Positions 5,244 to 50,203 of a stretch of 64,000 nt of DNA are shown in pieces; position 1 is the stretch's first letter, and the number at the start of each line of letters is the position of its first letter. Source of the DNA: Candidatus Kaiserbacteria bacterium. Lineage in GTDB: Bacteria > Patescibacteriota > Minisyncoccia > Phycocordibacterales > UBA2100. A program made the translations under genes and the position numbers. The notes beneath the pieces are model-generated. The model was not told where the DNA came from. It saw nothing but the letters and a program-made list of their open reading frames with translations, and searched no databases. The stretch is taken from contig CAVYCR010000005.1 of assembly GCA_963767115.1 (NCBI GenBank), forward strand, positions 89,582 through 153,581, given 5' to 3'.

Positions 5244-5744
5244 TTATGTACAGATAGTGACGCTCGCGGCGAGGTTTGTGCTCTCTGCCTTAGCATCGCC
5301 GTTGCTGTCTACGCACCACATAGAAGGCGTGCCGTTTTTGGATGCGGAGAGCGGAGTCTCTGCGGCCCATGCTGATCCACTGTCGTGACAAGTTACGTTG
5401 TTCCAAGCGCCTGCGGTTGCCGCTGTCGTATTGAGCGTTCCTGCACTTGCAAGCTGGCTGTTGGCCTGAGTCTGAGCTCCGGCAAGGATAGTGCCTGCGC
5501 CTGCGGGTGTGGCGGAGCCGAGTGCTGCGCAACCGCCCGTATAACTATTAGCATTGCTCGACGCATAGAGCTCCATCTGAGAACGAACGCTATCCATATC
5601 GCTCTTGACGCCTGCATCAACTCCCTTGCTGCGCGCTGTCGCAAGCGAGGCGAGAATGATGGCGGCCAAGATGCCGATGATGGCGATCACCACGAGAAGC
5701 TCGATGAGGGTGAAACCTCGATTACGATTAAATGATTTCTTCAT
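5244..5744 (-). CDS. type IV pilin (major-pilin-like), tandem paralog 2
   Basis: MKKSFNRNRGFTLIELLVVIAIIGILAAI. Very similar to 4521-5039 along its full length. Confidence 0.85.
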   Translation of the reverse strand: MKKSFNRNRGFTLIELLVVIAIIGILAAIILASLATARSKGVDAGVKSDMDSVRSQMELYASSNANSYTGGCAALGSATPAGAGTILAGAQTQANSQLASAGTLNTTAATAGAWNNVTCHDSGSAWAAETPLSASKNGTPSMWCVDSNGDAKAESTNLAASVTICT

Positions 5745-5856
5745 ACCATTATATTTTTACTTTTTATAAACCATTAATAAATTCTATACGGCAATTGTAT
5801 AACGGTGCTTCATAATTTCTTATGACTGTTGCACACGGTTGTGGATAACGGAACTC

Positions 5857-5937
5857 AGCTTCTAGCTGCTAGTGGCTAGCTTCTAGTAAAAAGAAAGTGA
5901 CGTATAGATTTTAGCTAGAAGCTAGCCCCTAGAAGCT
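5857..5937 (-). repeat. palindromic element just downstream of the pilC stop (arms agcttctag/ctagaagct and gctagcttctag/ctagaagctagc)
   Basis: Read directly. The unit differs by 1 nt from the leader-module unit (gcttCtag vs gcttGtag). Confidence 0.8.
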
Positions 5938-5946
5938 TCTTCTGCA

Positions 5947-7166
5947 TTAGAACGTCCCGGCGATCTGGTAGATCGGCAAGAGGACTGCCGCGAGCAAGAC
6001 GCCGACGCCGACGGCGAGAAAGACGATCATCACCGGCTCGATGAGACCGACAAGTGTATCGATCGCGTTGTCGACCTCGCGCCGATAGAAGCGGGAAATG
6101 GTCTCAAGGATGACGCCCATGTTGCCCGTCTCCTCGCCTATCTTTACCATCGCGACGATGATCCCGGGCATCTCCGGATGTTTGCGCAGTGCCTCGCTGA
6201 GCGGCATGCCGCCCTTCACGTCGACACCCGCGTCAGCGAGCACCTGCATGTAGATCGGGTCGCCCACGACGGCGCCCGTGATCTCTATCGCACGCAGGAT
6301 CTGAATACCGCTCTTGAGCATTGTGGAAAGGTTGTCGGCGATGCGCGAGAGGAAAATCTTCTTGTAGATGCCGCCGATGATCGGCATCTGCAGGCGCGCA
6401 CGCGAAAGTACCTGGCGGCCGCTTTCTGTCTGTGAATATCGATAGAGGAAGAAAGCGCCGACGAAGGTCATAATAATGATCAAGAGGATGTATTGGCGCA
6501 CAAACTCCGACGTACCGATCACGATCTGCGTGGTGATGGGCGGCTTCTGTCCGGCCGTGGTGATCATGCTGGCAAGGTTCGGGATGACGATCGTCATCAT
6601 GAGTGTCATGACCACGACGAACGTGAATATAATGAACGCCGGATAGATCAGAGCATTGCGAGCTTTCTGGATGATTTCGTAGTTACGGTCGAGGTACGAG
6701 GCAAGGTAGGTGAATGTCTCGTCGAGCTTGCCGCTCTCTTCGCCGGCGCGCACCATGTTGACATAAAAGTCCGAAAACATTTCCGGATGGTGCGACATAG
6801 CCACCGAGATCGAGGAGCCGGACTGGATCTCGTTGCCTACGTCGTTGAGCTTCTCGGCGACTAAGGGCGTGCGTGCTTCCTCGGCAAGCAAGCGAAATGC
6901 GCGCAATGCCGAGACCTGTGCCTCAAAGAGCGTCGTCATCTGACGCGAGATCATCACGATATCTTCGTTGGTGACGCGGTCGAAAAAGAGATGCGGCCCG
7001 AAAGGACGCCGCTTGCACCCTTCTTCTCTCCCACCGGCTCGATCTTGGAGATCACCAAGCCGCGATGCTGCAGCGCCGAGATCGCGAGGTCGACGTTGAC
7101 CGCGTCGATAGTGCCTTCACGCTCATGCGCTTCGCTGTCGAGTGCTGTGTAGGAAAAGACGGCCAT
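5947..7166 (-). pseudogene. pilC: type IV pilus platform protein PilC/GspF, split by one frameshift
   Basis: ORFs 6954-7166 and 5947-6957 are the N- and C-parts of one GspF-family protein. The frames rejoin if the A5 run at 6983-6987 is A6 (..GRISFFDRVTNEDIVMISRQ..). Confidence 0.85.
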
Positions 7167-7184
7167 AGATCAGTGCTCAGGAAA

Positions 7185-8249
7185 TCAGATGAGTTTGTTG
7201 AGCGTGGTCGGGTTGAGCGAATACTGATAGGCAGTCTCCGCTGTGATCTCGCCACGCGCCACGAGGTCTGCAAGAGAGTGGTTGAAGTCGATCATGCCTT
7301 CGGTCGAGCTCGTCTCGATCACCACGTCGATCTCTTTGGTGCGGCTCTCGCGAATGAGGTTCCCCACTGCGTTGTTGTTGATCAAGAGCTCACAAGCCGG
7401 GATCAGCCCGCCGGAGATACGCGGCAACAAACGCTGGCTGAAAATACCCGCAAGCGAGGACGACGAGCTGGATGCGGATCTGGTCTTGTTGGCCGGCCGG
7501 AAAGGCATCGATGATACGGTCGATGGTCTGCGAAGCATTGTTGGTATGGAGTGTAGAGAAGACCAAGTGGCCGGTCTCGGCGGCGGTAACGGCAGCCGAC
7601 ATCGTCTCGTGGCCCGCGCATTTCGCCTACAAGTATCACGTCGATGTCTTCGCGGAAAGCGGCGTTGAGCGCCGACTCGAAGCTCTTGGTGTCGATACCG
7701 ACTTCGCGCTGGTCGATGAGGGATTGTTTGTGTCTCAAAAAGGTATTCGATAGGGTCTTCGATCGTGACGATGTGCTCCATGCGCTCAGTGTTGATCGCT
7801 TCGATAAGCGATGCGAGCGTCGTGGTCTTCCCCTGGCCTACCGGTCCCACGACGAGGAAAAAGCCTTGCGCGCGTCGCGCGAAGCTGATGAGTGTCTCAG
7901 GCAAGCCGAGCTCTGCGATCGTGCGAATCTTCTTCGGAATCACGCGCAGCGCGATAGCGATCGTGCCGCGCTGATAGAAAGCGTTGCCGCGGAATCGTGA
8001 GCCCTCTTCGCCTTCATAGGCGAAGTCGATCTCCTGGTCGACCTTGAATTTTTCCATCCGCTCCTTGGAAATGAGCGCGCGCAAAAAGCCTTCAAGATCC
8101 TCGGGGGTCAAGACTGGCTCCTTGAGCATCGGCATAAGGTTGCTACTGACACGGATGGTCGGGTGAATGCCTGCCGAGAAATGCAAATCGGAAGCACCCT
8201 CATGCACGAGCACGTTGATATATTTTTTGAGAATCTGAGGATAGTCCAT
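7185..8249 (-). pseudogene. pilT: twitching-motility ATPase PilT, three internal +1 frameshifts
   Basis: Walker A GPVGQGKTTT is in the main frame. The conserved blocks KQSLIDQREVG..VGEMRG and [17 protein letters not shown] lie in the other two frames (ORFs 7403-7738 and 7390-7602). Confidence 0.85.
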
Positions 8250-8263
8250 AGATCAAGTATGCC

Positions 8264-8674
8264 TTATGCTTTGGAGTTTTTCCCGATTTCTTCAGCGATG
8301 ATGTTGACAACTTCTGAGGGAATCTTGCTTGCCTTCACGACGAATGCTCTCGCGCCCAAGCTATGCGCGCGAGCGCGTTCACTATCTTCCATCTGGTTGG
8401 TGAGCGCGATGAGAGCTGCATGCGGCACGAGCTTCTCATCGCGTATTGCCTCGAGAAGCGCAAAGCCGTCACGCTCGGGCATGATGAGATCGAAGACAAC
8501 TGCATCGGCCTCGAATCCCCCGCGGAGCATTTCGATTGCCTCATTGACCGAGAGGCATCCATGCGCAGTGAAACCCTCCTTCGCGAATTTCATCGCATAC
8601 ATGTCAAGAAGAAATTTGTCATCGTCGACCAAGAGCACGTTGCCTCTGTTTTTCGGATGTATTGAATCAGGCAT
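8264..8674 (-). CDS. single-domain response regulator (CheY-like receiver)
   Basis: [26 protein letters not shown] pattern. The ORF is intact. Confidence 0.85.
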
Positions 8675-8677
8675 AGG

Positions 8678-10408
<1,731 letters not shown>

Positions 10409-10417
10409 GTCGAATCA

Positions 10418-10768
10418 TTATTTGGACTTGAAAAGCGTTGGACTCACCGGGGTCAGCTGCGTAGCGGGGACGGATGCGCCTGCAAGCGGTGCAAACGGGT
10501 CGGGCCTGCCGACGGGTTCCGGTACTATAGCGGTCGTCAAATCCTGAAGTGAAGCGAAGGCCGGATCGGAGAAAATACTACTATTGAGTGAGACGGCTTG
10601 CAGCGAAACGAGCGTCGCCACGATCTGTGCCCCCGGTCCTGAGAGTGCCGAGTCAGTAGTAGTCGTTGTGATGTCTGACTGCGAGCTACTGCCAGAACCT
10701 AAGACATACCAAGCGACTCCGATGAGCACTATGACGCCGCCGATGATGAGTCCTTTGTGGTTGAACAT
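10418..10768 (-). CDS. small single-pass membrane protein, T4P-operon associated
   Basis: N-terminal TM helix. Located between the pilO-like gene and pilB. Confidence 0.5.
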   Translation of the reverse strand: MFNHKGLIIGGVIVLIGVAWYVLGSGSSSQSDITTTTTDSALSGPGAQIVATLVSLQAVSLNSSIFSDPAFASLQDLTTAIVPEPVGRPDPFAPLAGASVPATQLTPVSPTLFKSK

Positions 10769-10771
10769 ATA

Positions 10772-11401
10772 TTATGAAGAAGTGGAGCTTGCCGTCCCCA
10801 GAGGAATTGCGGAGACAGACGGCTTGAGCCAGTACGTCTGGAGTGCGACCGTGAAGCTATACACAGGCGTGCCGCCTACGCCGCCATTCGCTTGTGTGTC
10901 ATCGGTCACTTTGATCGATTGGATGTCGACGATAGCGAGGCTCGATTGGAGAACACTCAAGAACTGTTCGAAAGCCGCGTACGTGCCATGCACCGTGAAG
11001 TTCATGACCAGCGTATTATAGTCGACGTTCACCGTACCTACGACACCCGTAGCGCTCGTATTTTGGACAGCGCTCGCTTCATTGGAATTGACGTCGACGT
11101 TCTCGAGGGACATATTGTCTTTGGAGGCGAGCGTGTCAAAGTCAAGAATGAGCGCGATATCGTTGACCTGATCCGGCAACATCGTCTGCAAACGCGCCAG
11201 ATCGCTTGGATTGAAAGCGTTGAATTTGGCCAAAAGCTGCTTCATAACGCTTTCGAGTTGTGCTGCTTTGTCGAGTGCCGCATTATATTGAGCGATCTGG
11301 GCTTGGTTACCCTGAATAACCGTGTACGTCGGATCGGTGTAGAGATAGAAAATCGCTCCTGCGACCATGATCATGAATACTGAGAGGATAGTTCGTGTCA
11401 T
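10772..11401 (-). CDS. PilO-like pilus assembly protein
   Basis: N-terminal TM helix plus a coiled coil. Called from its position after the PilN-like gene. No motif-level proof. Confidence 0.5.
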   Translation of the reverse strand: MTRTILSVFMIMVAGAIFYLYTDPTYTVIQGNQAQIAQYNAALDKAAQLESVMKQLLAKFNAFNPSDLARLQTMLPDQVNDIALILDFDTLASKDNMSLENVDVNSNEASAVQNTSATGVVGTVNVDYNTLVMNFTVHGTYAAFEQFLSVLQSSLAIVDIQSIKVTDDTQANGGVGGTPVYSFTVALQTYWLKPSVSAIPLGTASSTSS

Positions 11402-11408
11402 ATGGTCA

Positions 11409-12158
11409 TCAATGGCCTGATTGAGTTGATTGAGTCGACTGGACTACAGAAGAAGGCGCAATAGCGGCCGGCGCTGTGCCGACGCTTGTTGTCGCAGTCG
11501 GTGGCACGCTGCTCTGCGAGGTCTGAGTAGGCTGTCCGTTCGCGCTATCTTGCGCGCCAGCTTGACCATTCTGCACGTATTGCTCATAACTCAGCGCGCT
11601 CGGGTTCACGTCGGCAGTGAGATTGAAGTGCACGCCGTCGATCTGCGGGTCGACATCGGAGAAAATCGGATTTTCAAGAACGCCGCTTTGGCCGAAGAGT
11701 TGGGCCTGCTCCGCGATCGAGTTGACACTCTGGGCGACGCCGGTCATTTTGATCGATACATGCTGGTTGTCGGGCGCTTCGTAGTCGAGCGTCGTGAATG
11801 ATATGGTCTGCAAGGTCGATTGATTGAGAGCCGCGAGAAATGCGCTTGGCGCCAAGTGTGAAGAAAGCAGCCCTTGGGCGGTCTGCATTCGATTATCAAG
11901 CTGTGTCAATTGTTGCACGAGCGTGGGATCAAACTGCTGCTGCGCGTTTTGGATCGATTTGAGTTTGCCGGCAACCTGAGTCTGGAGGTATTGGTTGTAT
12001 ATGAACGCTCCTGCAGCAAGCGCGATCGATGCCACCAAAAGTATGGTGGCAATCAGCGAGACGAGCTCGCTTAAGCCGCCGCTCTCGTAGCGTCGTATCG
12101 GCTTGGAGTTCGACGTCGCGTCTTGCGGTATGAAAGAATTAGGTACGCCTGCCTCCAT
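11409..12158 (-). CDS. PilN-like pilus assembly protein
   Basis: Bitopic protein directly downstream of pilM. The call is positional. Confidence 0.5.
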   Translation of the reverse strand: MEAGVPNSFIPQDATSNSKPIRRYESGGLSELVSLIATILLVASIALAAGAFIYNQYLQTQVAGKLKSIQNAQQQFDPTLVQQLTQLDNRMQTAQGLLSSHLAPSAFLAALNQSTLQTISFTTLDYEAPDNQHVSIKMTGVAQSVNSIAEQAQLFGQSGVLENPIFSDVDPQIDGVHFNLTADVNPSALSYEQYVQNGQAGAQDSANGQPTQTSQSSVPPTATTSVGTAPAAIAPSSVVQSTQSTQSGH

Positions 12159-12185
12159 AATATTATCTTTCGGCGTTCAGTTTGT

Positions 12186-13340
12186 TCATAAATGTTTGAG
12201 CTTACGCAAGGCGAGTCCTACCGAAACGGCAAAGCCGGGACCGATTTCCCGCAGGACGCTTTCCAAGAATGCCGGGGCTTCGGTATGCGCAAAAGGATTC
12301 GCCAACTCGACTTCGGCGTTCAGTGATGTTCGGGCCACTTCGATGATCCCCGGCAAGGATGCGCCGCCTCCCGTAAGGAGGACGCGCGACACATTCTTGT
12401 TGTATCGCTGACCGTAGGTTAATAGTACCCGATTTACTTCGCTAAACACACGAGAGAGTGTTGATAACAATGCCGCTTTGATCTGTTCGTTCTCGTCATG
12501 CGAGTACGTGCTCGTCTCGATGAGGCCTCGTTCGCGTTTGATGCGTTCTGATTTTTCAAATTCCCAGTTCATTGTACGCGCCAAAGTCTCCGTCATCTGC
12601 ACGCCGCCCGCCGTCACGATATGCGTGAGACGCACGACTCCCCGTTCGACCACGTACACCTTGGAGGTCGAGGCACCGAGGTCGACCATCACAACCGGCG
12701 CGATACCATGGTCAAGCGAGGCGCGTATCGCGCTAAAAATCTCGATTTCATAGAAATCGACCTTCAGCCCGGCTGTCGCGCTCAGGTTCTGATACGAGCG
12801 GAGAATCTCGTTTTGGATCGCGACGAGGAGCACCTCTTCGCCTTTGGCGCGCTTGGCCTCCACGTCTTTGTCTTGGATCTTGTCGAAAGCGCTGTCACCT
12901 GCTTCTTGTTGCGGCAGGACGAACCAGTCGAGCGCGACGTCAGAGACCGGAACCGGAATGTATTTGCGCGCTTCGATCGGCACGATGCGCTTGAGGGATT
13001 CGGCGTCGACCTTGGGCAGCTCGATCACCGTGACGAGGCTCGATGAAAAAGGAATGGAGAGCCCTGCTGTCTTTGAGGTCGTGTTGGCTTCCTTCATGAG
13101 ATCGACGAGCGCTTCGGCGAGCTTCTCGCTCTGGAGCTTCACAGACTTGCCGATGGGCTGCGTGCCGTACGGCCCGAGCGCGATCTCGCCGTAAGTCTCG
13201 AGGACTGCGGTCGCGCGCGAAGCGCGCAGCTGCACGAGCTTGATCGACGAAGAGCCGATGTCGATCCCGATCACGCTCGCATCAGGGCGAGCACCGAGCG
13301 AAGATGTCAGTCCTGCAAAAACTTTCGAGAACGACGCCAT
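12186..13340 (-). CDS. pilM: type IV pilus assembly protein PilM (actin-like ATPase fold)
   Basis: VIGIDIGSSSIKLVQL.. and ..VMVDLGASTSKVYVV.. phosphate-binding motifs. Confidence 0.85.
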   Translation of the reverse strand: MASFSKVFAGLTSSLGARPDASVIGIDIGSSSIKLVQLRASRATAVLETYGEIALGPYGTQPIGKSVKLQSEKLAEALVDLMKEANTTSKTAGLSIPFSSSLVTVIELPKVDAESLKRIVPIEARKYIPVPVSDVALDWFVLPQQEAGDSAFDKIQDKDVEAKRAKGEEVLLVAIQNEILRSYQNLSATAGLKVDFYEIEIFSAIRASLDHGIAPVVMVDLGASTSKVYVVERGVVRLTHIVTAGGVQMTETLARTMNWEFEKSERIKRERGLIETSTYSHDENEQIKAALLSTLSRVFSEVNRVLLTYGQRYNKNVSRVLLTGGGASLPGIIEVARTSLNAEVELANPFAHTEAPAFLESVLREIGPGFAVSVGLALRKLKHL

Positions 13341-13530
13341 TTAAAAAGTATATCACGCGCAGCATGAGCGAACTGGTTCTGTAACGAATTGGAGACAATC
13401 TGATTGTCTACACATGATGCATTCTTATACTTCAAGAGCTGATGTTAGCAACAAAAAAAGAAAATCCCCGGGCCCAAGTGACAAAGTGTCACGGATTCCG
13501 AGGATTCCGTCCGCCAGCGGCGGACAAAGT

Positions 13531-14004
13531 TCAAAGCGACTGCTTGGCGAGAGAGAGGACCTGAGGGAAGGCACGCCGCCTGCGGTCGCCGCGCTGCCAC
13601 GTGATGACACGCCACTCGCCGCTGTAGACATCGTCCCAGTGTACCGTCACGAGGCAGGAACTCGTGTAGAACAAGTTGGCGTAGCCGTTGCTTAGCAACG
13701 TCCCCTTCTTGCCGCCGGGCTGTTGCCCAATCAGCTGCGCGATGACCGCGCACATAGCACTCTCATCGAAGAGATTTCCCGACAAAGCGGCCTCGATCTT
13801 TTTGTCGGTCGCGTCTTTGGCGAGATCGGCGATGCCGAGGCTGAAGGTGGTACCCGCTTGCATCGGCTTCGCCCTGACTACGACGAGCTTGCGCATATCG
13901 CACCACACATAGAGCCCATCTCCGGTGAGATAGAAGTCCTCGGGATAGTGGTCCTCTATCGTCGTGATCGAGACGGGATCGCGGGATATTAAGATCTGAT
14001 TCAT
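13531..14004 (-). CDS. DGR variable-protein paralog (remote or orphan target)
   Basis: Paralog of 46758-47417 (..GDGLYVW..GTTF..CAV[IV]A..SNGYANLFYTSSC..). The start is at ATG 14004, preceded by GGAGG. Confidence 0.75.
   Translation of the reverse strand: MNQILISRDPVSITTIEDHYPEDFYLTGDGLYVWCDMRKLVVVRAKPMQAGTTFSLGIADLAKDATDKKIEAALSGNLFDESAMCAVIAQLIGQQPGGKKGTLLSNGYANLFYTSSCLVTVHWDDVYSGEWRVITWQRGDRRRRAFPQVLSLAKQSL
13548..13663 (-). other. VR-like C-terminal region of the remote DGR-target paralog
   Basis: Collinear with the TR. Variable residues fall at TR AAC codons, but several non-A differences and a 3-nt insertion are also present. Confidence 0.6.
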
Positions 14005-14140
14005 AACCCACCTCCTCAAAGAGCCGGTTCGAAAACGGGACTATTTCCGCTTTCTTAGGAGCTGATAATATTATACATCAAATAAATATAAAGTAAATAT
14101 ACAAAAAGAGGTACTTATCCCCACACGCCACGTTGCCCCT

Positions 14141-18544: not shown

Positions 18545-19258
18545 ATGAACAAAAACAAATTAGCCATTCCGCTCGTCGTCGCAGCCTTGCTCACGGGGAT
18601 CGGCACGAGCGCGATCACGCTCGCAAGCGCGGCTTCGACCGACACTTCGACGGTTTCAACGACGACCACTACACAGCCGCAGCGCACACCGCCCGCAGCA
18701 ATGGGCAAGGTCACGGCGATCTCAGGCAATACCATTACTATCACTGATCAGAGGCCGGGCGACACGACGACTGGCACGACCTACACGGTCGATGCAAGCA
18801 GCGCGACGGTCACCAAGGATCGCGATACTGCTTCGACCGTCTCGGCGATAGCAGTCGGCGATATGATCGCTGTGGACGGCACGGTCTCTGGCGACAACGT
18901 CACTGCTACGGCAATTCATGACGGCTTGGGCGGAGGTCCCGGCGGCCCTGGAGGATTCGGCGGCGGACGTGGCCCCGGCGGCGTCATGGGCACGGTCTCA
19001 GCCATCAACGGCAACACGCTCACAGTGACCGGCAAAGACGGTGGCACTTACACAGTAGACGCTTCAAGCGCAACTATCCGTGAAAGTGGCACCACCTCGA
19101 CACTCTCGAGCGTCAAAGTCGGCGACACCGTAATGATCGGCGGCTCGATCACAACGGCTTCGATGACAGCTACTCAAATCGATGACGGTGTCCCTACAGT
19201 TCCGTCAGATGCCTCAGCATCAGGCTCGACGACCACAAGCACCAATAAAACTAGCTGA
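18545..19258 (+). CDS. secreted repeat protein (DUF5666-like beta repeats, Gly-rich linker)
   Basis: Signal peptide, then two repeats GxV(T/S)AI(S/N)GNT(I/L)T(I/V)T..YTVDASSAT..VGD. Confidence 0.6.
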   Translation: MNKNKLAIPLVVAALLTGIGTSAITLASAASTDTSTVSTTTTTQPQRTPPAAMGKVTAISGNTITITDQRPGDTTTGTTYTVDASSATVTKDRDTASTVSAIAVGDMIAVDGTVSGDNVTATAIHDGLGGGPGGPGGFGGGRGPGGVMGTVSAINGNTLTVTGKDGGTYTVDASSATIRESGTTSTLSSVKVGDTVMIGGSITTASMTATQIDDGVPTVPSDASASGSTTTSTNKTS

Positions 19259-19417
19259 ATATCCCCTTCATGCCAGAAGTCCACTCAAGGGACCCGTGGG
19301 GAGCACCCTGCTACCGAATCGCAATCTTTCATGCCAAACAGCTCCCTCAGGCCGCGACTGGGGGTTCTGAAAACGCCGCTGGGCAGCGCAAACACATGAA
19401 ACAAATTCATCTTAGGC

Positions 19418-20014
19418 GTGTATTATCCTGTCGTGGACACTTCAACGACACAAGTAAGGACAGATGCAACCGATGAAGAGATCGCGACGCGAGTACAAGG
19501 GGGCGAGGCCGAGCTCTTTGGCGTCTTGATGCGCCGCTACGAGGCGAAGCTCTCGCGCTACGGCACGAAGTTCCTCTCAAGCCCCGACAACATCGAGGAC
19601 ATCGTGCAGGACGTCTTCGTGAAGGCGTATCACAACATCCAGAGCTTCGACACAGGCCGCCGCTTCTCGCCGTGGATCTATCGCATCGCGCACAACGCCT
19701 ATGTAAACGCCCTGCGCTCCAAGAGCCGGCTGCCGATCACGCTGCCCGACTTCGACACCTTCGTCTCGCACACCGTCTATGAGGACCCGGCGGAGCTCGA
19801 ACGCGAGCGCGTGGATATCAAGCAGATGATCGACGCGAGCCTTGAAAAGATCCCGGCAAAGTACAAAGAAATTCTTCTCTTGCGATACTATGAAGAAATG
19901 GACTACAAGGAGATCGCCGATGTGCTCGAAGTGCCGATGGGCACCGTGAGCGTACGCATCAAAAGGGCGAAGAATGCCCTGAAGGAGGCCGCCGCACAAT
20001 CCCCTATGCAATAA
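19418..20014 (+). CDS. ECF-type RNA polymerase sigma-70 factor
   Basis: Region 2 (DIVQDVFVKAY..F..WIYRIAHN) and region 4 (LLRYYEEMDYKEIADVLEVPMGTVSVRIKRA). The start codon is uncertain. Confidence 0.85.
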   Translation: MYYPVVDTSTTQVRTDATDEEIATRVQGGEAELFGVLMRRYEAKLSRYGTKFLSSPDNIEDIVQDVFVKAYHNIQSFDTGRRFSPWIYRIAHNAYVNALRSKSRLPITLPDFDTFVSHTVYEDPAELERERVDIKQMIDASLEKIPAKYKEILLLRYYEEMDYKEIADVLEVPMGTVSVRIKRAKNALKEAAAQSPMQ

Positions 20015-20769
20015 TGAATATGGAAAATCAAGACAAACAAACCGACATCAGCGAGCGCGTGCTCGGCAAGATCCGTGAAGGCACGGTCTCGATGCGGCCG
20101 CGCGGCTACTTCGTGCTGCAGAGTGTAGCGCTTGCGCTCGTCGCATTCATCGTACTCGTCGCCTCCGTCTCGATAGGCAGCTTCATTCTCTTTAGCATAC
20201 GCGCCTCAAACACCGCGCCGCTCCTCGACTTCGGGCCGCCGGGCTATATCATATTCCTGCAGCTTTTCCCGTGGCCACTTCTCATACTCGACATCCTTTG
20301 TGTGGCACTTCTCGAATGGATGCTTCGCAAGTTCCGCTTCGGCTACAAGAGTCCGTTCTTGTATCTCCTCTTCTGTATCATTGTTATCTCGCTTGCCTTC
20401 GCGCTCACGGTCGATCAGAGCCGCGCGAGCGATCAATTCCTGCGCGGCGCGCACGACCACGGCGTCCCCGGTATCGGCAATCTCTACCAGGATGGGCGGC
20501 GCCCGCCGCCGCCGGGAAGCGGCGCATGCCCGTGCACGATCATAGCAATCGGCACGAGCAGCGTGAGCGCGGTAGAAAACCAGCCCGACGGCACGCAGCA
20601 AGACGTGATCGTGATGCTGCCGCCCCAGATCGCGACGAGCTCGCTCGTAGTCGGCGGCCACTATTTCATCCTCGGCCATTTCCAAGACAACATTCTCTAC
20701 GCCTCCGACGTGCGCGCTTTTCAGCCCGACAGCGATGACGCTCCGCCTCCCGTAGAGCCGCATCAATAA
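20014..20769 (+). CDS. membrane protein, candidate anti-sigma partner
   Basis: Its start overlaps the sigma-factor stop. Multiple TM helices. The call is positional only. Confidence 0.4.
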   Translation: MNMENQDKQTDISERVLGKIREGTVSMRPRGYFVLQSVALALVAFIVLVASVSIGSFILFSIRASNTAPLLDFGPPGYIIFLQLFPWPLLILDILCVALLEWMLRKFRFGYKSPFLYLLFCIIVISLAFALTVDQSRASDQFLRGAHDHGVPGIGNLYQDGRRPPPPGSGACPCTIIAIGTSSVSAVENQPDGTQQDVIVMLPPQIATSSLVVGGHYFILGHFQDNILYASDVRAFQPDSDDAPPPVEPHQ

Positions 20770-20825
20770 TTGCCTTTCACAGGCAGGTTTTTGTATAGGC
20801 GGCAAAAGCTTGTACACTACGCTCC

Positions 20826-22292
20826 ATGTGGACAGCGCTATCTTCGATCAACTGGGAGCGGTGGCGCGACGGCGCATCGTGCCTCATGCTCTGCGCGATC
20901 ATTGCCTCGACGGGTCAGTATGATTTTGCGCGAGTGTCGAGCTACCTTGTGCCGCAGCCAGCGCCACAGGAGGAACACTTGCAGCAGGTCGTCGCCACTT
21001 CCCTCGTTCCCGTCGTCGAAGCGGCGACACTTTCGACCAGCACTCCGGAGCGCGTGATCGATACGCTCACGCCCGAGGAAGCCGTGCCGAGTACCGGCAA
21101 GTTCATCATTGCCGACCTCGTGCATATGGAGCTCTATCTCTATCAAGACGGCGCGGCGACGGCTACCTATCCAATCCTCACCAAAGGCAGGCCCGGCACG
21201 CCATACGAAACGCCGAGCGGATTCTATACGATACTGACGAAGGAAGTGAATCATTTCAACAAGGCAGAAGGGGTAAACATGCCATATAGTATGGAATTCT
21301 ACGGCAACTACTTCATCCATGGCTGGCCGACGTACGCCGACGGCACGCCGGTTGCCTCTACCTATTCCGGCGGCTGCATCCGGCTCAGCACCGCGGATGC
21401 GCAGCAAGTATATGCGTTTGCGACAGTCGGGACGGGAGTCTATGTGTACGACACCGGCGCGGCCACCTCCGCGCCCGCGCTCATGCTTGCCAACGCTCCC
21501 GTGCCCGCGATCTCCGCCCCCGCGTATCTCGTCGCCGACCTCGACAACGGCGACGTGTATGCGGAAGAAGACGGGCAGACACAGCGACCGATCGCTTCAC
21601 TCACCAAGCTCATGACCGCGCTCGTCGCCAACGAAACCATCATGTTTACCGACGACGTAACCGTACCGCGCGGCGACCTGAGTGATGTCGCCGTCGCGAC
21701 CGATACACAGCCTGAGACATTCGTCGTGGGCGACCTCTTGTACCCTCTCTTGATGGAATCCAACAACAACATCGCGAATATCCTCGCAAGCTACTACAGC
21801 ACCGGCGCCTTCGTGAGCTGGATGAACTCACAGGCGCACGCGCTCGACATGGGCTCGACCACTTTCGCCGACCCGAGCGGCGTCTCGCCGCAAGACACCT
21901 CGACGCCCGAAGACCTCTATCGCCTCGCTGTCTACCTCGCCAACAAAAAGTCCTTCGTATGGAAAATCACCGCGACGCCCGAGAAGTCGATCACGGCGAC
22001 CGACGGCTCCTCCTACACCTTCGAGAATTACAACCTCTTCTCAGGCTTGAGCTCCTTCGTCGGCGGCAAAGTCGGCAAGACCGGGCAAGCAGGCGAGACG
22101 ATGATATCTATCTTCAACGTGCCCGTCGGGAGCGGAGAGCGCCGCGTCGCTATCATCGTGCTTGATTCGCAAGATTACAAGAGCGATACGCAATCACTTC
22201 TAGACTGGTTCACCCAATCGGCCGACGCGTCCGCGAGCACCGCCTGCGCCTCGTGCATGCTGCCGCAAGAGTATCGAACGATTCAGCTGTAA
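20826..22292 (+). CDS. L,D-transpeptidase (YkuD) fused to a D-alanyl-D-alanine carboxypeptidase (S11)
   Basis: YkuD motif FIHGW..SGGCIRL, followed by an S11 SxxK motif (IASLTKLMTA) and a C-terminal PBP5-like region. Confidence 0.8.
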   Translation: MWTALSSINWERWRDGASCLMLCAIIASTGQYDFARVSSYLVPQPAPQEEHLQQVVATSLVPVVEAATLSTSTPERVIDTLTPEEAVPSTGKFIIADLVHMELYLYQDGAATATYPILTKGRPGTPYETPSGFYTILTKEVNHFNKAEGVNMPYSMEFYGNYFIHGWPTYADGTPVASTYSGGCIRLSTADAQQVYAFATVGTGVYVYDTGAATSAPALMLANAPVPAISAPAYLVADLDNGDVYAEEDGQTQRPIASLTKLMTALVANETIMFTDDVTVPRGDLSDVAVATDTQPETFVVGDLLYPLLMESNNNIANILASYYSTGAFVSWMNSQAHALDMGSTTFADPSGVSPQDTSTPEDLYRLAVYLANKKSFVWKITATPEKSITATDGSSYTFENYNLFSGLSSFVGGKVGKTGQAGETMISIFNVPVGSGERRVAIIVLDSQDYKSDTQSLLDWFTQSADASASTACASCMLPQEYRTIQL

Positions 22293-22380
22293 CATTTTGT
22301 TCGATTAAAGACTGATCTGAGACGTCTTTGGAAAAAGAAACGGCCGCCTGAAACGGCGACCGAAATAGGCCTGGAGTTGT

Positions 22381-22800
22381 CTACGGCAAATACGGTGCCT
22401 CGAAAGCGAATGACGCTACTTCAGGCAATACTTTTGCATCCCTTTCAAGTTTTCTTTGAAGTTCGCGGAGAGCGTAGCCGATTTCCCAGCCAACCTTCTT
22501 TGTGATCTCTTCCGCTAAATTACTGGGGCTATTAACTTCAAAGAGTGCGTCTCTTTCGATCTTCCCGCCCACGGTATTGAAGATCACCCTGCACACAACC
22601 TGTAGCGTCGGACTGGCGTCACTATATTTCCGGAAAGCGACAGTGATGACTTCAAAGTAAATCCCCTGACATGCGACCTTTCGGATGACTTCGGCACAAC
22701 CTTTTGCGATTTGGCTAACATACTCCACATCGACCATCGCTCCTATACTGTCCCCCCTATCATCGATAGTCGGATGGAGATTGATGCTTATCTTTGCCAT
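22381..22800 (-). CDS. hypothetical protein
   Basis: ORF with GGAGG 8 nt upstream of the ATG at 22800. Confidence 0.5.
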   Translation of the reverse strand: MAKISINLHPTIDDRGDSIGAMVDVEYVSQIAKGCAEVIRKVACQGIYFEVITVAFRKYSDASPTLQVVCRVIFNTVGGKIERDALFEVNSPSNLAEEITKKVGWEIGYALRELQRKLERDAKVLPEVASFAFEAPYLP

Positions 22801-22913
22801 TTGAACCTCCTGATGATGCACAAGCACCTTTCATGGCTGCACCACACACGGAACAACCGTCCGGATTGTGGCACATTTCGTTTTATTAGAAAAGCGGATC
22901 CGACTATTTGAAA

Positions 22914-23480
22914 TTATAGGATCCAAGGAATCAGCATCTTGGTACGCGCTTTGTATGCAGGATAGGCCGCCGGGAAGGTGGCCGTCATGATCTTTTCTTC
23001 CTGCAACGACGCGTAGAGAAAATACACAAGCGCGCAGGCTGCGACCAGAAACCACCACACGCCGAGCACCCAGCCCGAGCCGAGCATCGCGAGTAAGATC
23101 CCTGTGTAGATAGGGTTGCGTATATATGCGTACGGCCCCGTCGTCACGAGTTCGGGATTTTCTTTATGCGACATCGGCATGCCCCAATTGCGACCGAGAT
23201 AGAAACGTGCCCAGAAAGCGATTGCAATGCCGGCGACAATGAGCAGGAGTCCGACGACATCAAGTGTCATACTGTATGATGGCCCCCAGTACATCTGCGA
23301 GTACGACGTGGGATCGCTCTGTACAAAGAAGAAAACAATGACGACTACGACGATGCGGAAGACCCACGACGAATAATTACGCTGCGTCGTGCGCTTCGCG
23401 CCGAAGGCCGAAACGATCCATACGACGACGGCCAAGAGCCATAAGGCGCCTGCAATCTCGGCTGTGACTTGGGGATTCAT
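22914..23480 (-). CDS. isoprenylcysteine carboxyl / phospholipid methyltransferase family membrane protein
   Basis: ..LVTTGPYAYIRNPIYTGILL.. signature plus TM helices. Confidence 0.75.
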   Translation of the reverse strand: MNPQVTAEIAGALWLLAVVVWIVSAFGAKRTTQRNYSSWVFRIVVVVIVFFFVQSDPTSYSQMYWGPSYSMTLDVVGLLLIVAGIAIAFWARFYLGRNWGMPMSHKENPELVTTGPYAYIRNPIYTGILLAMLGSGWVLGVWWFLVAACALVYFLYASLQEEKIMTATFPAAYPAYKARTKMLIPWIL

Positions 23481-23623
23481 ACAGGTACGATTACGCAAAG
23501 TCTATGATATTTCTATGAATGTTCAGCATATCACAACGAGCTTATCCACGAGATCCCAACCATAAAGATGAAGGACGTGCAATAATACAGGCATTAAAAG
23601 GGTAGGAACTTATTATTGTATTT

Positions 23624-24717
23624 ATGCACACAGCACTTCATACCAACGCACTCGTCGCTGCCGCTGATGCCGCAGGGGTCGGCATCGTCGTTTTTATCAT
23701 ATTCTCGGTGGTCATCATTGTGCTCGCGGTCCTGATGCTCATACTTGCCGGGCAATGGCGGATGTTTGAGAAGGCTGGCATGCCGGGCTGGGCTACGATC
23801 GTGCCTTTTTATGGCGTCACGAAGATGCTCCAGATGGTCAACTACCCACTCTGGTGGATCGTCCTCATGCTCATCCCGGGAGTCAACATGGTGCTCGCGG
23901 TCATGCTCGCCTACCGCTTGGCACGCGTCTTCGGCCACGGAGCGTGGTTTACGGTCGGCATGATTTTCCTTCCCTTTATCTTCTACCCGATCCTCGGCTT
24001 CGGAACGAGCCGTTACGACAACCGCTTCCCGCCGGCACGCGCGCTGACCCCCGTCGTGCAATGGTCGCTTGCGGCGCTTGTCTTGTGGATGGTGATGTTT
24101 TCTTCTGTGGAAATAGCATCTATCATCTCGTCAGCAGGTGCTTCGAGCCCGCAACAGCTCCAGCAAGTCGGCGACGACCTCGGCTATGTCACCGACGGCA
24201 ACTACGTCTATTACAACGACCAGCTCATGCCGAATGCTGACGCGTCATCCTTCACCGCCGACGGAGAATACGGCATTGATGATTATGCCGTTTACTCAGG
24301 CGCCGACGCGCTCCCGGGCGTCGACCCGCAAGACTTCACAGTCTTGCAAGATGGCTTCTATGCGACGACCGGCACGAATGTGTACTATGATGGCAGCTTG
24401 GTAGCCAGTGCTGACTCCACGAGTTTCGATGTCCTCGGCAACGGATACGCCAAAGACGCGCGTGCCGCATATTACGACGGCAGCGCCATCCCAGAGTCAC
24501 AGCCTGATTCGTTCCAAGTATTGGATACTGATTATGCCAAGACGCGGGTGCGGTCTACTACGACGGCCTCGCGGTCACGGGAGCGGATTCAGCGACATTC
24601 ACTGTATTACCGTCGACGACCGCACAAGAGGATGACACAGACGCTACTGCACCCACGTACGATGCCAAAGACAAGAACCACTTCTACTCAGCTGGCCAGA
24701 TTACGACAGGTAGATAA
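23624..24717 (+). pseudogene. membrane protein (DUF5684-like N-terminus) with DKNYY-type C-terminal repeats, one frameshift
   Basis: The N-terminus ..WRMFEKAGMPGWATIVPFY.. The repeats YAKDARAAYYDG.. continue in another frame after 24539-24540 (..YAK(D)AGAVYYDGLAVTGADSATF..DKNHFYSAGQ..), with a stop at 24715-24717. Confidence 0.7.
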
Positions 24718-37219: not shown

Positions 37220-37301
37220 CATAACCGGCGCTCAAAATAAGGCTCGGCATAGCACCGATAACAAGTACTGACTGCGGGGTGTTTGGTACGAGGTTGGAAC
37301 T
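37220..37301 (-). repeat. att-like scar: copy of the tRNA-Ser 3' flank plus a degenerate tRNA 3'-like motif
   Basis: cataaccggcgctcaaaataaggctcggcatagcaccgataacaagtact compared with 54692-54746, about 85-90% identical by eye. It is followed by gtgtttggtacgaggttggaact. Confidence 0.65.
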
Positions 37302-37304
37302 AGT

Positions 37305-37835
37305 TTAGGTTAAAAAACCCTTATTTCTACCGTCATCAACAATTTTATCCAACTCTTTTAAGTATTCTTCACATATAGAGAATATGTCTTCGTCACCCTG
37401 CCAGTCACTAAAAGTATATTTACTTGAAATAATCCCGTTATCGATAGCACTTTGGAATGGTTGAAATTTGCCGATCGACTGCCCTTTTATATTTCCATCC
37501 TTATCTTTGTGTACCATTGATACAGAATCGCTAATATGTATAGTTTCTGATAGCATCAATGAAATATCGCGTTTAAACTCAAGAGGTTCAGTGTGAATAT
37601 TGAAATCTCTTTTGTCTTTCAAAAAATCTACTACCTTGTTGTTTGTCACTTGGTTGTCATACCATCTTTTGCCATCATCTTTAGACTCAGCTTCTTTTAA
37701 AGCATATTGTAAAACCGATCGAGAAGATGATAAAAAAGCACTTAGATTAAATTTAAAACCTTCTCTATTTTCTTTCTCTTTTACCATCTGAGAGTAAAAG
37801 TATTTTGCTTCAAGAAGCTTATCTATTTCATTCAT
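37305..37835 (-). CDS. hypothetical protein (low GC cassette gene 1)
   Basis: ORF track. AT-rich codon usage unlike the flanks. No domain recognised. Confidence 0.6.
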   Translation of the reverse strand: MNEIDKLLEAKYFYSQMVKEKENREGFKFNLSAFLSSSRSVLQYALKEAESKDDGKRWYDNQVTNNKVVDFLKDKRDFNIHTEPLEFKRDISLMLSETIHISDSVSMVHKDKDGNIKGQSIGKFQPFQSAIDNGIISSKYTFSDWQGDEDIFSICEEYLKELDKIVDDGRNKGFLT

Positions 37836-37848
37836 GCTCTTTACGGAC

Positions 37849-37873
37849 GTGTATTTGGTACGAGGTTGAAACT
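37849..37873 (-). repeat. second copy of the 23-25 nt tRNA-3'-like motif
   Basis: gtgtatttggtacgaggttgaaact compared with 37279-37301 gtgtttggtacgaggttggaact. Confidence 0.6.
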
Positions 37874-37904
37874 CTCTTAGGATAGAAGAACTTAATTTAG
37901 TTGC

Positions 37905-39131
37905 CTATTCTCGCGCCTTATATATTTCGAGGAAAAGCTGCGATAGTTCATTGATACCCGAGGTCTGGATACCTTGCCCCTTAAAAGAAACTGGACATCC
38001 TCTTCCTCTGGAAGGAAGTCGATCAAGCTCTTGATCTTGAGCTTCTTTAATTTCACCCGTTGAGAGTGCTTGCTTTATTTTCTGCATCTCATCAAGAATA
38101 TGAGGATTAAGAATAAGCTTGCCTTGTGCATCTTTTTGTACAAGTTCGGAAAGATATTTTCCCATCAAAGAGAAAGGGCCGATATAGCCTGGTGGAGCAA
38201 GATATCCGAGCTGATTTGGCAATTCAGCCTTTATTAAATCCTCGATAAACTTTTCTGAATCATCGTAGCCATCTTTTTTCTCTGACGAGAGTTGAGCGAC
38301 AGCTTGACCCAAAGTAACTATACCTTCTTGTAATGCCTTTAGCGCAGCCATACTCATATCATTGAGTAGGCGGAGGTCCTCTTCTCCGCGAGCAGTTTTT
38401 GCAAAAATATCTTTATGTGCTTCAACTAGCTGCGCAGATTTTTCTTCTAGAACGGAGGTGCTCTTGAGCATAATTTCGACTGTTTCGTAAATCTTCTTTG
38501 CTACAGTTGGTCCATATTCGCCAACAGGAATAACAACGAATGGCGGGAGCATTTTACTATTTTCTTTTGACCACGACTTGCCAAACAAAATCTGTGGGGC
38601 ATTTTTTACTTTAAATTTTTTATCCCATATTTCCTGCTCGTTGTTGAGATGCCCGGCATTATGCTCGGCAAATGCTGCGACCTGAGCGAAAAGTGGACTT
38701 ACGGATTCTGAATTAAAGCCCTTTTTCATTTCTTCAATAATTACTTCGATATGATTCTCAAAATGTATTTCACTCATCGGAGAATCTTTACGATTGGTTC
38801 GTCTTAAAAATTCCTTATATCCAATCCCTCCAATCTCTTGATTTCTTAGTAATGACGGTAATTCATTCATCCCAAAACCTAAGAAGTCCATACAGCTTGT
38901 CAAAGAGGAATAATTTGGACTCATTTCCGGTTTATATTCTTCAAGTTCCAGAAATTCGGGATTTGGTTTTGAAACTCCATTCTCGCGCACGGAGGAAACA
39001 TAGTCGCCAATGAATGGCGTAAGAACATTTCGCAAAACTCGCAAATGTTCTACCGCCTCTTTCTTATCAGGAGCCTTCTCGTCATTTTTAGGATGATCGA
39101 CTTCTCTTGCCGACAGTTTTTCTAGTCCCAT
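37905..39131 (-). CDS. hypothetical protein (low GC cassette gene 2)
   Basis: ORF track, 408 aa. No domain recognised. Confidence 0.6.
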   Translation of the reverse strand: MGLEKLSAREVDHPKNDEKAPDKKEAVEHLRVLRNVLTPFIGDYVSSVRENGVSKPNPEFLELEEYKPEMSPNYSSLTSCMDFLGFGMNELPSLLRNQEIGGIGYKEFLRRTNRKDSPMSEIHFENHIEVIIEEMKKGFNSESVSPLFAQVAAFAEHNAGHLNNEQEIWDKKFKVKNAPQILFGKSWSKENSKMLPPFVVIPVGEYGPTVAKKIYETVEIMLKSTSVLEEKSAQLVEAHKDIFAKTARGEEDLRLLNDMSMAALKALQEGIVTLGQAVAQLSSEKKDGYDDSEKFIEDLIKAELPNQLGYLAPPGYIGPFSLMGKYLSELVQKDAQGKLILNPHILDEMQKIKQALSTGEIKEAQDQELDRLPSRGRGCPVSFKGQGIQTSGINELSQLFLEIYKARE

Positions 39132-39260
39132 GTTCCTGATTGTATCAGATATCCCTTATCACTGGGATACCTCTTTACACTTGATATTCAACAGTGCTTA
39201 ATATGTCCTAATGTCTCTCAAAACCCACTACGGGGGCAGTCGTCTAACAGCTACAGACAA

Positions 39261-39317
39261 GGGCTCGACATAGGTCCGATACAAAATACTACGGGCGGGC
39301 ATCCGACGTTTCGAACT
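39261..39317 (-). repeat. pseudo-tRNA-Ser 3' fragment plus flank copy (att scar)
   Basis: The minus strand reads GTTCGAA-N11-CCGCCCGTAGTA. It has the same length and ends as the tRNA T-loop-to-3'-end plus flank (GTTCGAATCCCTGCCTCTCCGCCCGTAGTA). Confidence 0.7.
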
Positions 39318-39785
39318 TTCTACATCAGGCCCCACAAGGGTATTTTGACGATAAATCCTGATCAAAACCGAGGTGTCAGCATAGGGATGCGCAATCAGCG
39401 AAATCCCCACAAATCCCTTTTTTGACGACTTTGCATAGTGATCGTGATCGGCAAAAAAGCGAGCTTTATAGGGAAAAACGATCAAATTCAGAGACCAGAC
39501 TCATTTTCAAGATAGGGATTTCGTCTGTTGCGGTGTGGTCGTTTATTTCGGCCTCTGTTGGGTGTACAATAAATCCACCATTGACCACTAACAGACCCCG
39601 TTAGGGGTCTTTGGCATTTATAGCCGGTTCGATTTGGCACCGCCCGCCATCGGCGATATGGGTTAATTAACTAATGAGTGCTAGAACAGCACGCGATCCG
39701 GAAACACGACCGACAGCTGCGCCATGATCCCTGACCAGTTGCACACAGTAAAACTTCTGCTCGATGTGATATCCGTGCCAAGATA

Positions 39786-42700
39786 TCAATTTGACAGATG
39801 AGTTCCGCACAGATCGATTTCTTTCATGACATCTATAGTACCTTTGAGCGAGACAACCATCTTCTCGTAGTTCTCGAATTCAGCGGTGGTTAGCTTCTGC
39901 CCCTTACGATCCTTGAGATATTTTTGTGCGGGTTGGTATCCGCCGATATAAAACTCCCACACATCTTTTGGCACACCGTCCCAATACTGCGAGGCATTGA
40001 TATAGACGCGACCGTCTGAATAACTTATCTTGTCGACAATGTCCGACGATGCAATAGGAAATGTCGTGATCGGTGTCTCGACGAGAGGGTCAGTCAACAG
40101 ATGCATCCCTCGCAACTTCCTGCCGAGCGGCACGAGCCGCCAAAACTTTTCTTTATCTTTCGGATAGGGCACGCGCGGAAAATCACTCTTCAAGAACTCG
40201 GCATACGTTGCTCGATATGACGGAGAGTGCAGCATTGCATATACATAATCAAAAATGTCTTCCGGCCTCGTCGGACCCACAGTAAGTTCTATTTTCAGAA
40301 CAATCATTGGATCGAGATTCGGCTTCTTCTCGCCCTTTTTGTAGAGATACAGAGGGGATATATAATTTGTCTCTTTAATCGATACCCGGCGGGCGTCGGA
40401 AATCTTATCGGTCAAAAATATGTCAGCAAAATCGCGAGACCCCTCAATATGCTTATTTGATACAAGTCCGACATTATCACCATCTAGGAAATCATGCATT
40501 ACACTTCTTCGTGAACGCTCAATAAAATCATCGCTGTAGTAAATATATTTTTGATCAAACGGTCGATACGATATTGGTACGATATTGTGCGCATCAAATG
40601 TATGCTTCTGTGCGTTCACTATTTTCCATTTCTGATTTTCACCGAGCGCATATTTGCGTACCGCTTCGTTTGGAGAAATCATAAGAAAATCTTCTATCCG
40701 CTTGGCGAGTACGTCTTTAGATTGATCGATTACGAATGCATCGCGCGAGGTAACGATGCCGACCGTGTTTATTGGGAATAATTCTGCAACAGAAAATCCC
40801 TGCAAATAATCGCTCTTGCCCTCACCTTCCACCTTCCAAGTATCAGCGTTCTCCGGAAGTTCGTTCCAAACAATCGTATCAACCGTTCCCATCGTGAGTG
40901 CTTCGAATTTCTCTGAGCGCAAACCAAACAGATCAGCTTTGAAAATCGTTGCGAGCGGCTTCCTTTTTTTCTTGTCGCCGAGCCGTTTCTTGATGCCAAA
41001 AAATATCGAGACACCCGTCTTGATGTCGAAGACATTTTCGTCTTTTCCGCCGTCCTGTGTCGTCTCTTTCTTGTTGCTGTTGCCGTGCAAGTCGAGCACA
41101 TAGATCGCATCGAAGGTGTCGCGCAAGTGCCAACGCATCCCGCGGAATGTTGGGTTGTCGATGTAGCCGTGCGAGGTGATCATGCCAACAATTCCCTCGC
41201 CATTTTTCTCGATCATTGTTTCGGCGAAGCGGATGAACTTTACATAATCATCGTTGATCCATTTGCTGTTTTTCTCTTTCAACTTTTCTTTGCCACCCGG
41301 TTCGACCTTGTATGCATCGTTAGCCGTATAGTGAGGATTCATAGATTCGCCTGAGTACGGCGGATTGCCCATCACGACCATGATCGGATACTCGCGTTTG
41401 ACACGCGAGGCAAGGCGGCTTTCCTCGGCAATACTCTCAACCGCACCGAAGAGACTATGGATGAGCGGGATGTCGTGCGCTTCGTCAAGCGTGTTGGTGA
41501 GATAGACGCCGAGCCGATGCTTGAGATCGTTGAGGCCGGTGTGCTTCAGTGTCATGGCAATCTTGAGATGCGCAATCGTATAGCTCGCCATCATGAGTTC
41601 AAATCCATGCAGGCGCGGTAAGAGATCATCTTCTACATATGCGCCCCAACGACCCTGCGCGCCCTTCTGCGATTCGTGGATGTGCGTGATCGTTTCGTTG
41701 AGGAATGTCCCTGTACCCGTCGCCACGTCGAGAAGTTGTACGCGATGTGTGTCGATATCAACTCGCTTCTCTTTCCCTTTATCGAGCACCGTCGTCGAAC
41801 GCTCGATACGAGAGTTGTCAGCGATACCCTTGCTGATGCCAAACTCCCGTTTCAAGAGGTCGTCGATGCCGCGGATGATGAATCGCACCACCGGAAGCGG
41901 TGTATAGAAGACACCCATTTCCATCTTCTTCTGCGGATCATATTCACGCAGGAAATCTTCGTAGAAATGTATAACGGGGTCGGGCAGGTCGGCATTCACA
42001 TCTTTGTTCTTGAAATATTCCTCCATGAGCGCCTTCACATCGGCGTGCGTGAAGACTGTGCACAGTTCGTCGACAATGACGCTCAGACGTCGCGGGAAAG
42101 ATGTACCGGCAATATGATCGAAGAAACTTTGTAGAAACGGGTTGGTTTTGGGGATGAGACTTCGTGCTTCTTGGCGGTTGAATGTGTCGGCTGTCGGATC
42201 GTTGTAACGCGCGGCGAAGAGACCATACACGATTGTCTGCGCATACATGTCGGCGAAGTCGGTGGTCGTGAAAGTCGTGATGAGATTTTCCCGAATGAAA
42301 CGCATCATGCGTTCGAGCTCATCCTTTTCTTGGCTCGTGCTTTCAAGGAACGCGATCACGTTGTCACGTATGCGCTGCGCCTTGCCGCCCATGATGCGCG
42401 CGAGGTGTGCGCCGCTTTTGATCGGCTCTTTCTGCGACTCGACGAAGTCGTGCATGGTGCGCGCAAGCCGCTCGCCCTGGCCCGGGTGCGGGATGAACGT
42501 GCCACGCTTCACATCGACGGTTGCGAGGCGCAAATGTTCGTCGTATGGCTCGCCATTGCGATAAAATCTAAATTCGCAGTAGTCACTGATGATGAGGTTG
42601 GTGTAGCCGAAGTACCGGCTCGCCTGCGAGGACTTCTCGATCTTGTTGAGGTCTTCACCGACTTTCTTCACTTCAATATACAAAAGAGGAACATCGTCTT

Positions 42701-42914: not shown

Positions 42915-43084
42915 GATGGATGCTTCTTACAGGGCTCAATTGTAGCATTTTTTAGCTTATTATGAAGAGGTTACTTACCAACTCCGAGAGATATCCGAAT
43001 ACTCGGGCCTCTTTCGGGTATATAAGCAATACAGCACAAAATCATCAATTGAAAAAGGGCTAAATGGGCGTACATTAAGGATAT

Positions 43085-44881: not shown

Positions 44882-44948
44882 TGCTCCTTGAAGGATGAGC
44901 TGCGGGATTATTCGGGTATTTCGAACCTCGATTTTATAAATCTATACT

Positions 44949-45989: not shown

Positions 45990-46302
45990 GCAGTGGCATG
46001 AATACCGAGAGGACTTTCCAAAATCATCCCGCTATACACTCGGCGACAGGATAGACCTTCTTTTTGTTCATATTCTTGAACTACTATTTACCGCAAGTTA
46101 CCAAAGCAAGGAAGCGAAGCTGCCGACACTCGAGATGGCGGTACGAAAAATTGACGTATTGAAATTCCTGTTACGCGTCGCATGGGAGCTTCGGGCACTC
46201 GACACGAAAAAGTACGCGGTGCTATCGGAAAAATTAGATGAATTTGGTCGAATGGTCGGCGGTTGGAAGAAAGGACTGGGAACCAAAACTCCCGCCAGAT
46301 AG
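45922..46302 (+). CDS. avd: Avd-like accessory variability determinant (four-helix-bundle, 23S rRNA IVS protein family)
   Basis: ..FPKSSRYTLGDRI......ILE....A.......K...L......ID.LK.LLR.A.EL......KY..L...LDE.GRM.GGW.K pattern. 126 aa. Confidence 0.75.
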   Translation: MPLTYPPPARILPVIEHGVSVYKQWHEYREDFPKSSRYTLGDRIDLLFVHILELLFTASYQSKEAKLPTLEMAVRKIDVLKFLLRVAWELRALDTKKYAVLSEKLDEFGRMVGGWKKGLGTKTPAR

Positions 46303-46328
46303 TAGAGGCGGGAGAAACTCGGTAGTTT

Positions 46329-47623: not shown

Positions 47624-47678
47624 TCAGGGACAATTCAATAGCTACCTACGCGGTAGCCGCGGTGGTCGAGAGAAAGGA

Positions 47679-50191: not shown

Positions 50192-50203
50192 CCGCACATC
50201 AAT

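Follow-up and report, generated by a model that had tools for sequence, protein, structure and literature searches.

The pil gene cluster and the deposited pilT gene

The window (the whole 64-kb stretch of DNA that was analysed) carries a type IV pilus cluster with the gene order pilM..pilB-RR-pilT-pilC. The arrangement pilB-RR-pilT-pilC is the usual one in metagenome-assembled genomes (MAGs) of Parcubacteria/Kaiserbacteria. The pilM/N/O-like flanking genes and the genes downstream are intact. The features that are discussed here are listed in Table 1.

Table 1. Position of the features in the window. Frames of the out-of-frame segments are given relative to the deposited pilT ORF.
Feature	Position	Strand	Remarks
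Inverted repeat	5864-5937		just downstream of pilC
pilC	5947-7166	-	1-nt deletion splits the gene into a 70-aa and a 335-aa ORF
Strain-divergent tract	6814-10152		site of every single-base indel (11) found against the Logan contigs, and of the 76 substitutions
pilT ORF as deposited	7185-8249	-	open over 1065 nt (354 codons)
Insertion site 3	7464	-	extra G, CAGCTC[G]TCGTCC (L001 alignment)
Out-of-frame segment 2	7465-7610	-	true frame +2; 48 aa, ends ...QQDQIRIQL; contains the His box (7543-7575)
Insertion site 2	7611-7615	-	one extra base in GGGCC, exact base ambiguous
Out-of-frame segment 1	7616-7731	-	true frame +1; 39 aa, includes Walker B (7613-7642)
Insertion site 1	7730-7733	-	extra C at 7732; coding strand GAGA[C]ACAAA versus GAGAACAAA (L001 alignment)
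Response-regulator gene (RR)	8264-8674	-	between pilB and pilT; intact, one synonymous difference
pilB	8678-10408	-	7 single-base indels; annotated fragments include one of 261 aa and one of 86 aa
Intergenic block	19237-19387		upstream of a sigma-70-family gene
Type ISP-like restriction-modification enzyme	39786-42914		1042 aa
Diversity-generating retroelement (DGR)	44949-47417		complete
DGR reverse-transcriptase ORF	44949-45989	-
DGR bAvd accessory gene	45922-46302	+
DGR template repeat	46329-46446
DGR variable repeat	46766-46883		3' end of ORF 46758-47417 (-)
N6_N4 DNA methyltransferase genes	47776-49811		two adjacent genes
Site-specific recombinase	51974-53305

The initial annotation had described pilT as a long ORF with a nonsense middle of about 95 codons, the PilT blocks being located in the other two frames. 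Three-frame translation agrees with this. On the coding strand, the PilT reading path leads from frame 0 to frame 1, then to frame 2, and finally back to frame 0. Frame 0 is recognisable as PilT as far as ..IEDPIEYLFE, with frame 1 taking over thereafter. True PilT sequence is represented by the N-terminal 172 and the C-terminal 88 residues of the 354-aa product. From the first to the last insertion, 94 codons are out of frame, and their translation is nonsense. The Walker A P-loop is in frame (GPVGQGKT, residues 135-142, window positions 7824-7847). The same holds for the C-terminal PilT motif of the AIRNLIRE type (AVGNLIRE, residues 294-301). Walker B and the His box are encoded in frames +1 and +2, respectively, and neither shares the frame of Walker A, so that the Asp-box/Walker B and the His box are indeed missing from the annotated frame, as had been claimed.

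When three bases are removed (about 7732, 7611-7615 and 7464), a 353-aa PilT results. It had been proposed that deletion of one nucleotide per site restores a canonical PilT, and that both translations be compared with PilT HMMs. The two versions differ strongly. Pfam T2SSE (PF00437) matches only residues 6-172 of the deposited protein (57 bits), but residues 6-277 of the corrected one (150 bits). Membership in NCBIfam TIGR01420 (PilT/PilU) is defined by the curated NCBI cutoff of 319.1 bits for the whole protein and by an end-to-end match. The deposited protein reaches 248.9 bits, distributed over two stretches, against 431.1 bits for the corrected one, whose single match spans profile positions 2-341 of 343. 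The deposited product is thus outside the family, while the locus encodes a member of it. The corrected protein matches the PilT/PilU family of Parcubacteria/Kaiserbacteria MAGs from end to end; the deposited one differs in that the remainder of the Asp box is out of frame, together with Walker B and the His box. What the locus encodes is an ordinary PilT, the ATPase that retracts type IVa pili, from a CPR bacterium that resembles Parcubacteria/Kaiserbacteria.

The closest homologue of the corrected protein among 5.8 billion proteins is P0001, which is intact (353 aa) and 97% identical. Among the matches listed, the other 119 CPR PilT proteins have 73-79% identity. PilT is full-length in all 160 relatives that were retrieved in scans of genome and metagenome contigs. 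The initial annotation had also named what would speak against it, a homolog family that shares the middle segment as deposited. No such family was encountered: the 94-residue nonsense segment has no match in the 5.8 billion proteins. A near-identical second copy of the locus was not found in genome and metagenome contigs either, where relatives have at most 78% identity.

The expectation that the gene would be taken for intact by an ORF caller has proved correct: NCBI and ENA list a protein of 354 aa with exactly this sequence. The open frame across the scrambled segment is unremarkable, because the same three insertions would also leave the gene open in 19 of 151 relatives (~13%). The case resembles the Crick-Brenner rII triple frameshift, according to which three insertions of the same sign restore the reading frame: together, the three +1 insertions amount to one additional codon, after which the original frame is regained. 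It differs in that the 94 scrambled codons cover essential catalytic motifs, and no function is restored.

Single-base indels in pilT, pilB and pilC

The window was compared with five Logan contigs (L001, L002, L163, L164 and L165), which represent an independent assembly of the public run ERR11630394. A literature search for this run accession was without match. L001, the source contig of P0001, has 98.97% DNA identity to window positions 5685-9282, and L163 covers positions 14109-9273.

The pilT insertion sites were placed by base-by-base alignment to L001, where the gene is intact. The alignment bears out three +1 shifts in the same direction with a net effect of +3. Two of the positions proposed earlier (about 7609-7611 and about 7457-7464) were right within a few bases. 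The third, an A5 run at 7737-7741, was slightly off; the real site is 5 nt downstream, at 7732. The A5 run itself is intact, because the 'LFE' that precedes the break is conserved in relatives (P0001-P0010). Site 2 adjoins a GG/AA difference to the intact variant.

The insertions that cancel each other had been regarded as a peculiarity of pilT. This view could not be upheld, since three adjacent genes share 11 single-base indels within one tract of 3.3 kb: seven are in pilB, three (all insertions) in pilT, and one (a deletion) in pilC. Those of pilB are +G at 9956, -C at ~9841, +G at 9773, +G at 9557, -C at ~9524, +G at 9318 and +G at 8945. They were located by tblastn frame junctions with the PilB proteins of relatives and by alignments to L163 and L001. 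Placement is ambiguous by 1-4 nt for the indels at 7611-7615, ~9524 and ~9841. With five insertions and two deletions, pilB also has a net shift of +3, and its last segment is back in frame. The deletion in pilC shortens a homopolymer from T6 to T5 (an A5 run at 6983-6987 on the + strand). The intact version of pilC, which codes for 406 aa, is present in L001.

The restoration of the pilT frame is a coincidence of an insertion-biased process, because a net shift of 0 mod 3 has a chance of 1/3 per gene; pilB also reaches +3, and pilC is not restored.

A tblastn search with the ORFs of 80 related loci gave frame junctions in no genes of the region 1-17 kb other than pilB, pilT and pilC. A codon-usage frame plot was noisy and gave a hint of the shifts in pilB; it was superseded by tblastn with the ORFs of relatives. 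Three ORF pairs elsewhere in the window (47776/48954, 26425/27224 and 61413/61810) had looked suspect but turned out to be separate genes. The pilB indel at 8945 had been considered as part of a compensated double shift ('CPDGYRGR'). This was rejected, as all outgroups read 'CPTGMRGR', and so does the intact variant.

The inverted repeat downstream of pilC has a length of 29 nt, is 86% complementary, has a 16-nt loop and is conserved in L001. It is probably a terminator hairpin.

A strain-divergent tract

About 29.7 kb of the window were compared with the Logan contigs, of which ~26 kb are outside the tract. All 11 indels are absent from L001 and L163. They are confined to the divergent tract, which is flanked on both sides by sequence that is 100% identical to the Logan contigs (10153-14109, 3957 bp; 5685-6813, 1129 bp). 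Elsewhere, L002 is 100% identical to positions 37232-43397, L165 shows two SNPs and no indels relative to positions 43368-52786, and L164 is a perfect match to positions 18763-24465 except for one replaced intergenic block of ~150 bp. Not a single one-base indel occurs in the ~26 kb compared outside the tract. Confinement of the indels to the tract has a P of about 9e-8 when calculated for the 14.6 kb compared first, and a smaller one for the full 29.7 kb.

Within the tract, the proximity of the indels to SNPs is marginal relative to random positions (P about 0.06-0.10). The idea that both alleles of a SNP had been retained at the insertions was discarded. It fits every insertion trivially, and tests of codon position and of SNP proximity were non-significant.

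The deposited NCBI/ENA contig (157,086 bp) is the sole recorded source of the frameshift products. These are PilT with 354 aa, PilB fragments of 261 and 86 aa, and PilC fragments of 70 and 335 aa. Intact proteins that flank them on the same contig are also present in Logan. The tract variant of the window was not seen in intact form in any other assembly.

The intergenic block that differs in L164 is replaced there by an unrelated sequence of ~100 nt, the remaining 5.5 kb being identical. At the level of strains, a probable regulatory region has thus been replaced.

Constraint and indel spectrum

Synonymous substitutions outnumber non-synonymous ones in the tract by 44 to 30 (59% synonymous), and the amino acid changes are mostly conservative. 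As a rough estimate, ~1/4 synonymous substitutions are expected under neutrality. Judged from these codon changes, the substitutions represent real strain divergence under purifying selection.

The out-of-frame segment of PilT, once corrected, is the best-conserved part of the protein, with 82% mean identity to 119 outgroups. There are seven residue differences between the PilT of the window and that of the intact variant. At six of these, the window has the majority outgroup residue, and the seventh is not polarisable. In PilB, the outgroup majority is matched more often by the window than by the intact variant. The corrected proteins are nearer to the family consensus than those of the intact variant. 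Protein-level decay is absent from the variant in the window.

It is the intact variant (L001/L163), and not the window, which bears derived residues at highly conserved positions of PilB and PilT. Among these are two tandem double substitutions, both from GGC to AAC (Gly to Asn), at PilT residue 212 and PilB residue 284. In the part covered by L001, 22 of the 32 differences have A/T in L001 and G/C in the window.

All 11 indels have a length of 1 nt, with eight insertions versus three deletions, and seven of the eight insertions are a G on the coding strand. Simple changes in homopolymer length account for at most two or three of the 11, namely the two clean deletions (C3 to C2 and T6 to T5) and perhaps the GGG at 7613-7615. 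In bacterial pseudogenes, deletions usually predominate, the indels vary in size, and homopolymers are prone to slippage. Neither the relaxed constraint (an excess of non-synonymous or derived changes) nor the deletion-biased indels of mixed size that characterise a decaying pseudogene were found here.

Origin of the indels

We consider it likely that the indels are consensus errors, made where sequences of divergent strains were collapsed or merged in the assembly, or where their coverage was thin, so that the deposited pilT is wrong at three bases and the gene itself is normal and functional. We infer that the indels arose in the assembly and not in the cell. Their absence from independently assembled contigs of the same population (L001 and L163) is what is expected from an artefact. 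Co-existing strains would differ over the tract, and the indels would have been introduced during consensus building. Several causes are conceivable. Reads of divergent variants may have been collapsed or merged, a rare variant may have been covered by too few error-prone reads, or polishing may have failed locally. In the case of pilT, the three indels would all be insertions by chance, the frame would return, and a gene caller would see a 354-aa gene with a nonsense core.

It is documented that, in long-read assemblies which have been collapsed, nearby allelic variants lead to misaligned reads and to INDEL errors (PMC8445201), and frameshift inflation is a general problem of long-read assemblies (PMC9262707, PMC12007338). 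The case described here shares with such mixed-variant errors (PMC8445201) that indels are confined to where the variants differ, and that truncated or chimeric ORFs result. It is unlike the textbook long-read errors, which are homopolymer deletions, as mostly G insertions outside of homopolymers are seen here. Because the ~26 kb compared elsewhere are nearly error-free, a special local cause must be assumed if the indels are consensus errors. Single-base insertions are also not a usual product of de Bruijn assembly from short reads alone, which would count against such errors if the contig had been built in this way.

Alternatively, the indels may be part of the true genome sequence. The type IV pilus motor would then have been lost very recently, in a strain or a subpopulation, by frameshifts in pilB, pilT and pilC, and the pilT ORF would be a true pseudogene which is missed by gene callers. 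The cause could be selection against piliation (e.g., by a pilus-dependent phage) or the import of a defective allele by recombination; with its identical flanks, the tract does resemble a recombination import. The sequence was deposited in this form, on a contig which otherwise matches the independent assembly over ~26 kb and is hence generally accurate. Moreover, all three motor genes are affected, while the pilM/N/O-like genes beside them and the genes downstream are intact. We nevertheless consider a real loss unlikely. One frameshift per gene would be enough, and to accumulate eleven would need a long neutral time, which is at odds with the retained ancestral residues, the missing amino acid decay and the excess of synonymous changes. 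The indel spectrum (mostly insertions, all of 1 nt, mostly G and mostly non-homopolymer) and the absence of the products from any other assembly also argue against it.

Eleven frameshifts without drift of the proteins would require an extraordinary local burst of insertion-specific mutation. It seems quite improbable to us that such a burst, made up mostly of +G insertions in a recombined tract, has only just deprived a Kaiserbacteria-like CPR strain of pilB, pilT and pilC. If true, there would be a CPR lineage that is naturally devoid of a pilus motor and, in addition, an unusual, localised and insertion-biased mutational process.

It is highly improbable that the whole contig is of low accuracy, as would be the case for unpolished long reads with random indels throughout. 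Several frameshifts in three neighbouring genes would fit such a contig, but a generally poor assembly is excluded because the flanks are identical to the Logan contigs, the ~26 kb compared outside the tract are free of single-base indels, and the remaining genes of the region 1-17 kb lack frame junctions, the suspect ORF pairs being separate genes.

Practically negligible is a functional role of the frameshifts (programmed ribosomal frameshifting, transcriptional slippage or the use of the triple-frameshift variant protein): the ORF is open and the frame is restored, but the pilT insertion sites have no slippery motif in common and occur neither in the 99%-identical copy nor in the 160 relatives, in all of which the frame is uninterrupted, the product lacks Walker B and the His box in frame and is below the family cutoff, the open frame is within chance expectation, and pilB and pilC are simply broken.

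Consequences for annotation

If the indels are consensus errors, as we favour, the case is of value mainly as a caution concerning data quality. In NCBI and ENA, a 'PilT' of 354 aa whose catalytic core is nonsense passes as intact next to the PilB and PilC fragments of the same contig, and it would also pass length checks such as the query-to-hit length ratio. Surveys of type IV pilus gene content in CPR would score pilT as present and functional, but pilB and pilC as fragmented. Host attachment of CPR is assumed to rely on type IV pili (PMC9894109, PMC12206443). If the indels were real, a member of this group would have lost its pilus motor naturally, which would be a rare event; the evidence leans against this.

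Other elements in the window

The DGR has a reverse transcriptase, a bAvd accessory gene, and a template and a variable repeat (Table 1). In 20 of the 21 mismatches between the two repeats, the template has T on the + strand, corresponding to A on the - strand; this is the classic adenine-specific pattern. A link between the DGR and the pil tract was considered and dropped, as the differences in the pil genes are not adenine-specific.

The Type ISP-like restriction-modification enzyme has a match to Type_ISP_C and faint matches to N6_Mtase/Eco57I. The two N6_N4 DNA methyltransferase genes are next to the site-specific recombinase. The restriction-modification and methyltransferase genes have close homologues on other contigs, which suggests that they form a mobile defence island.
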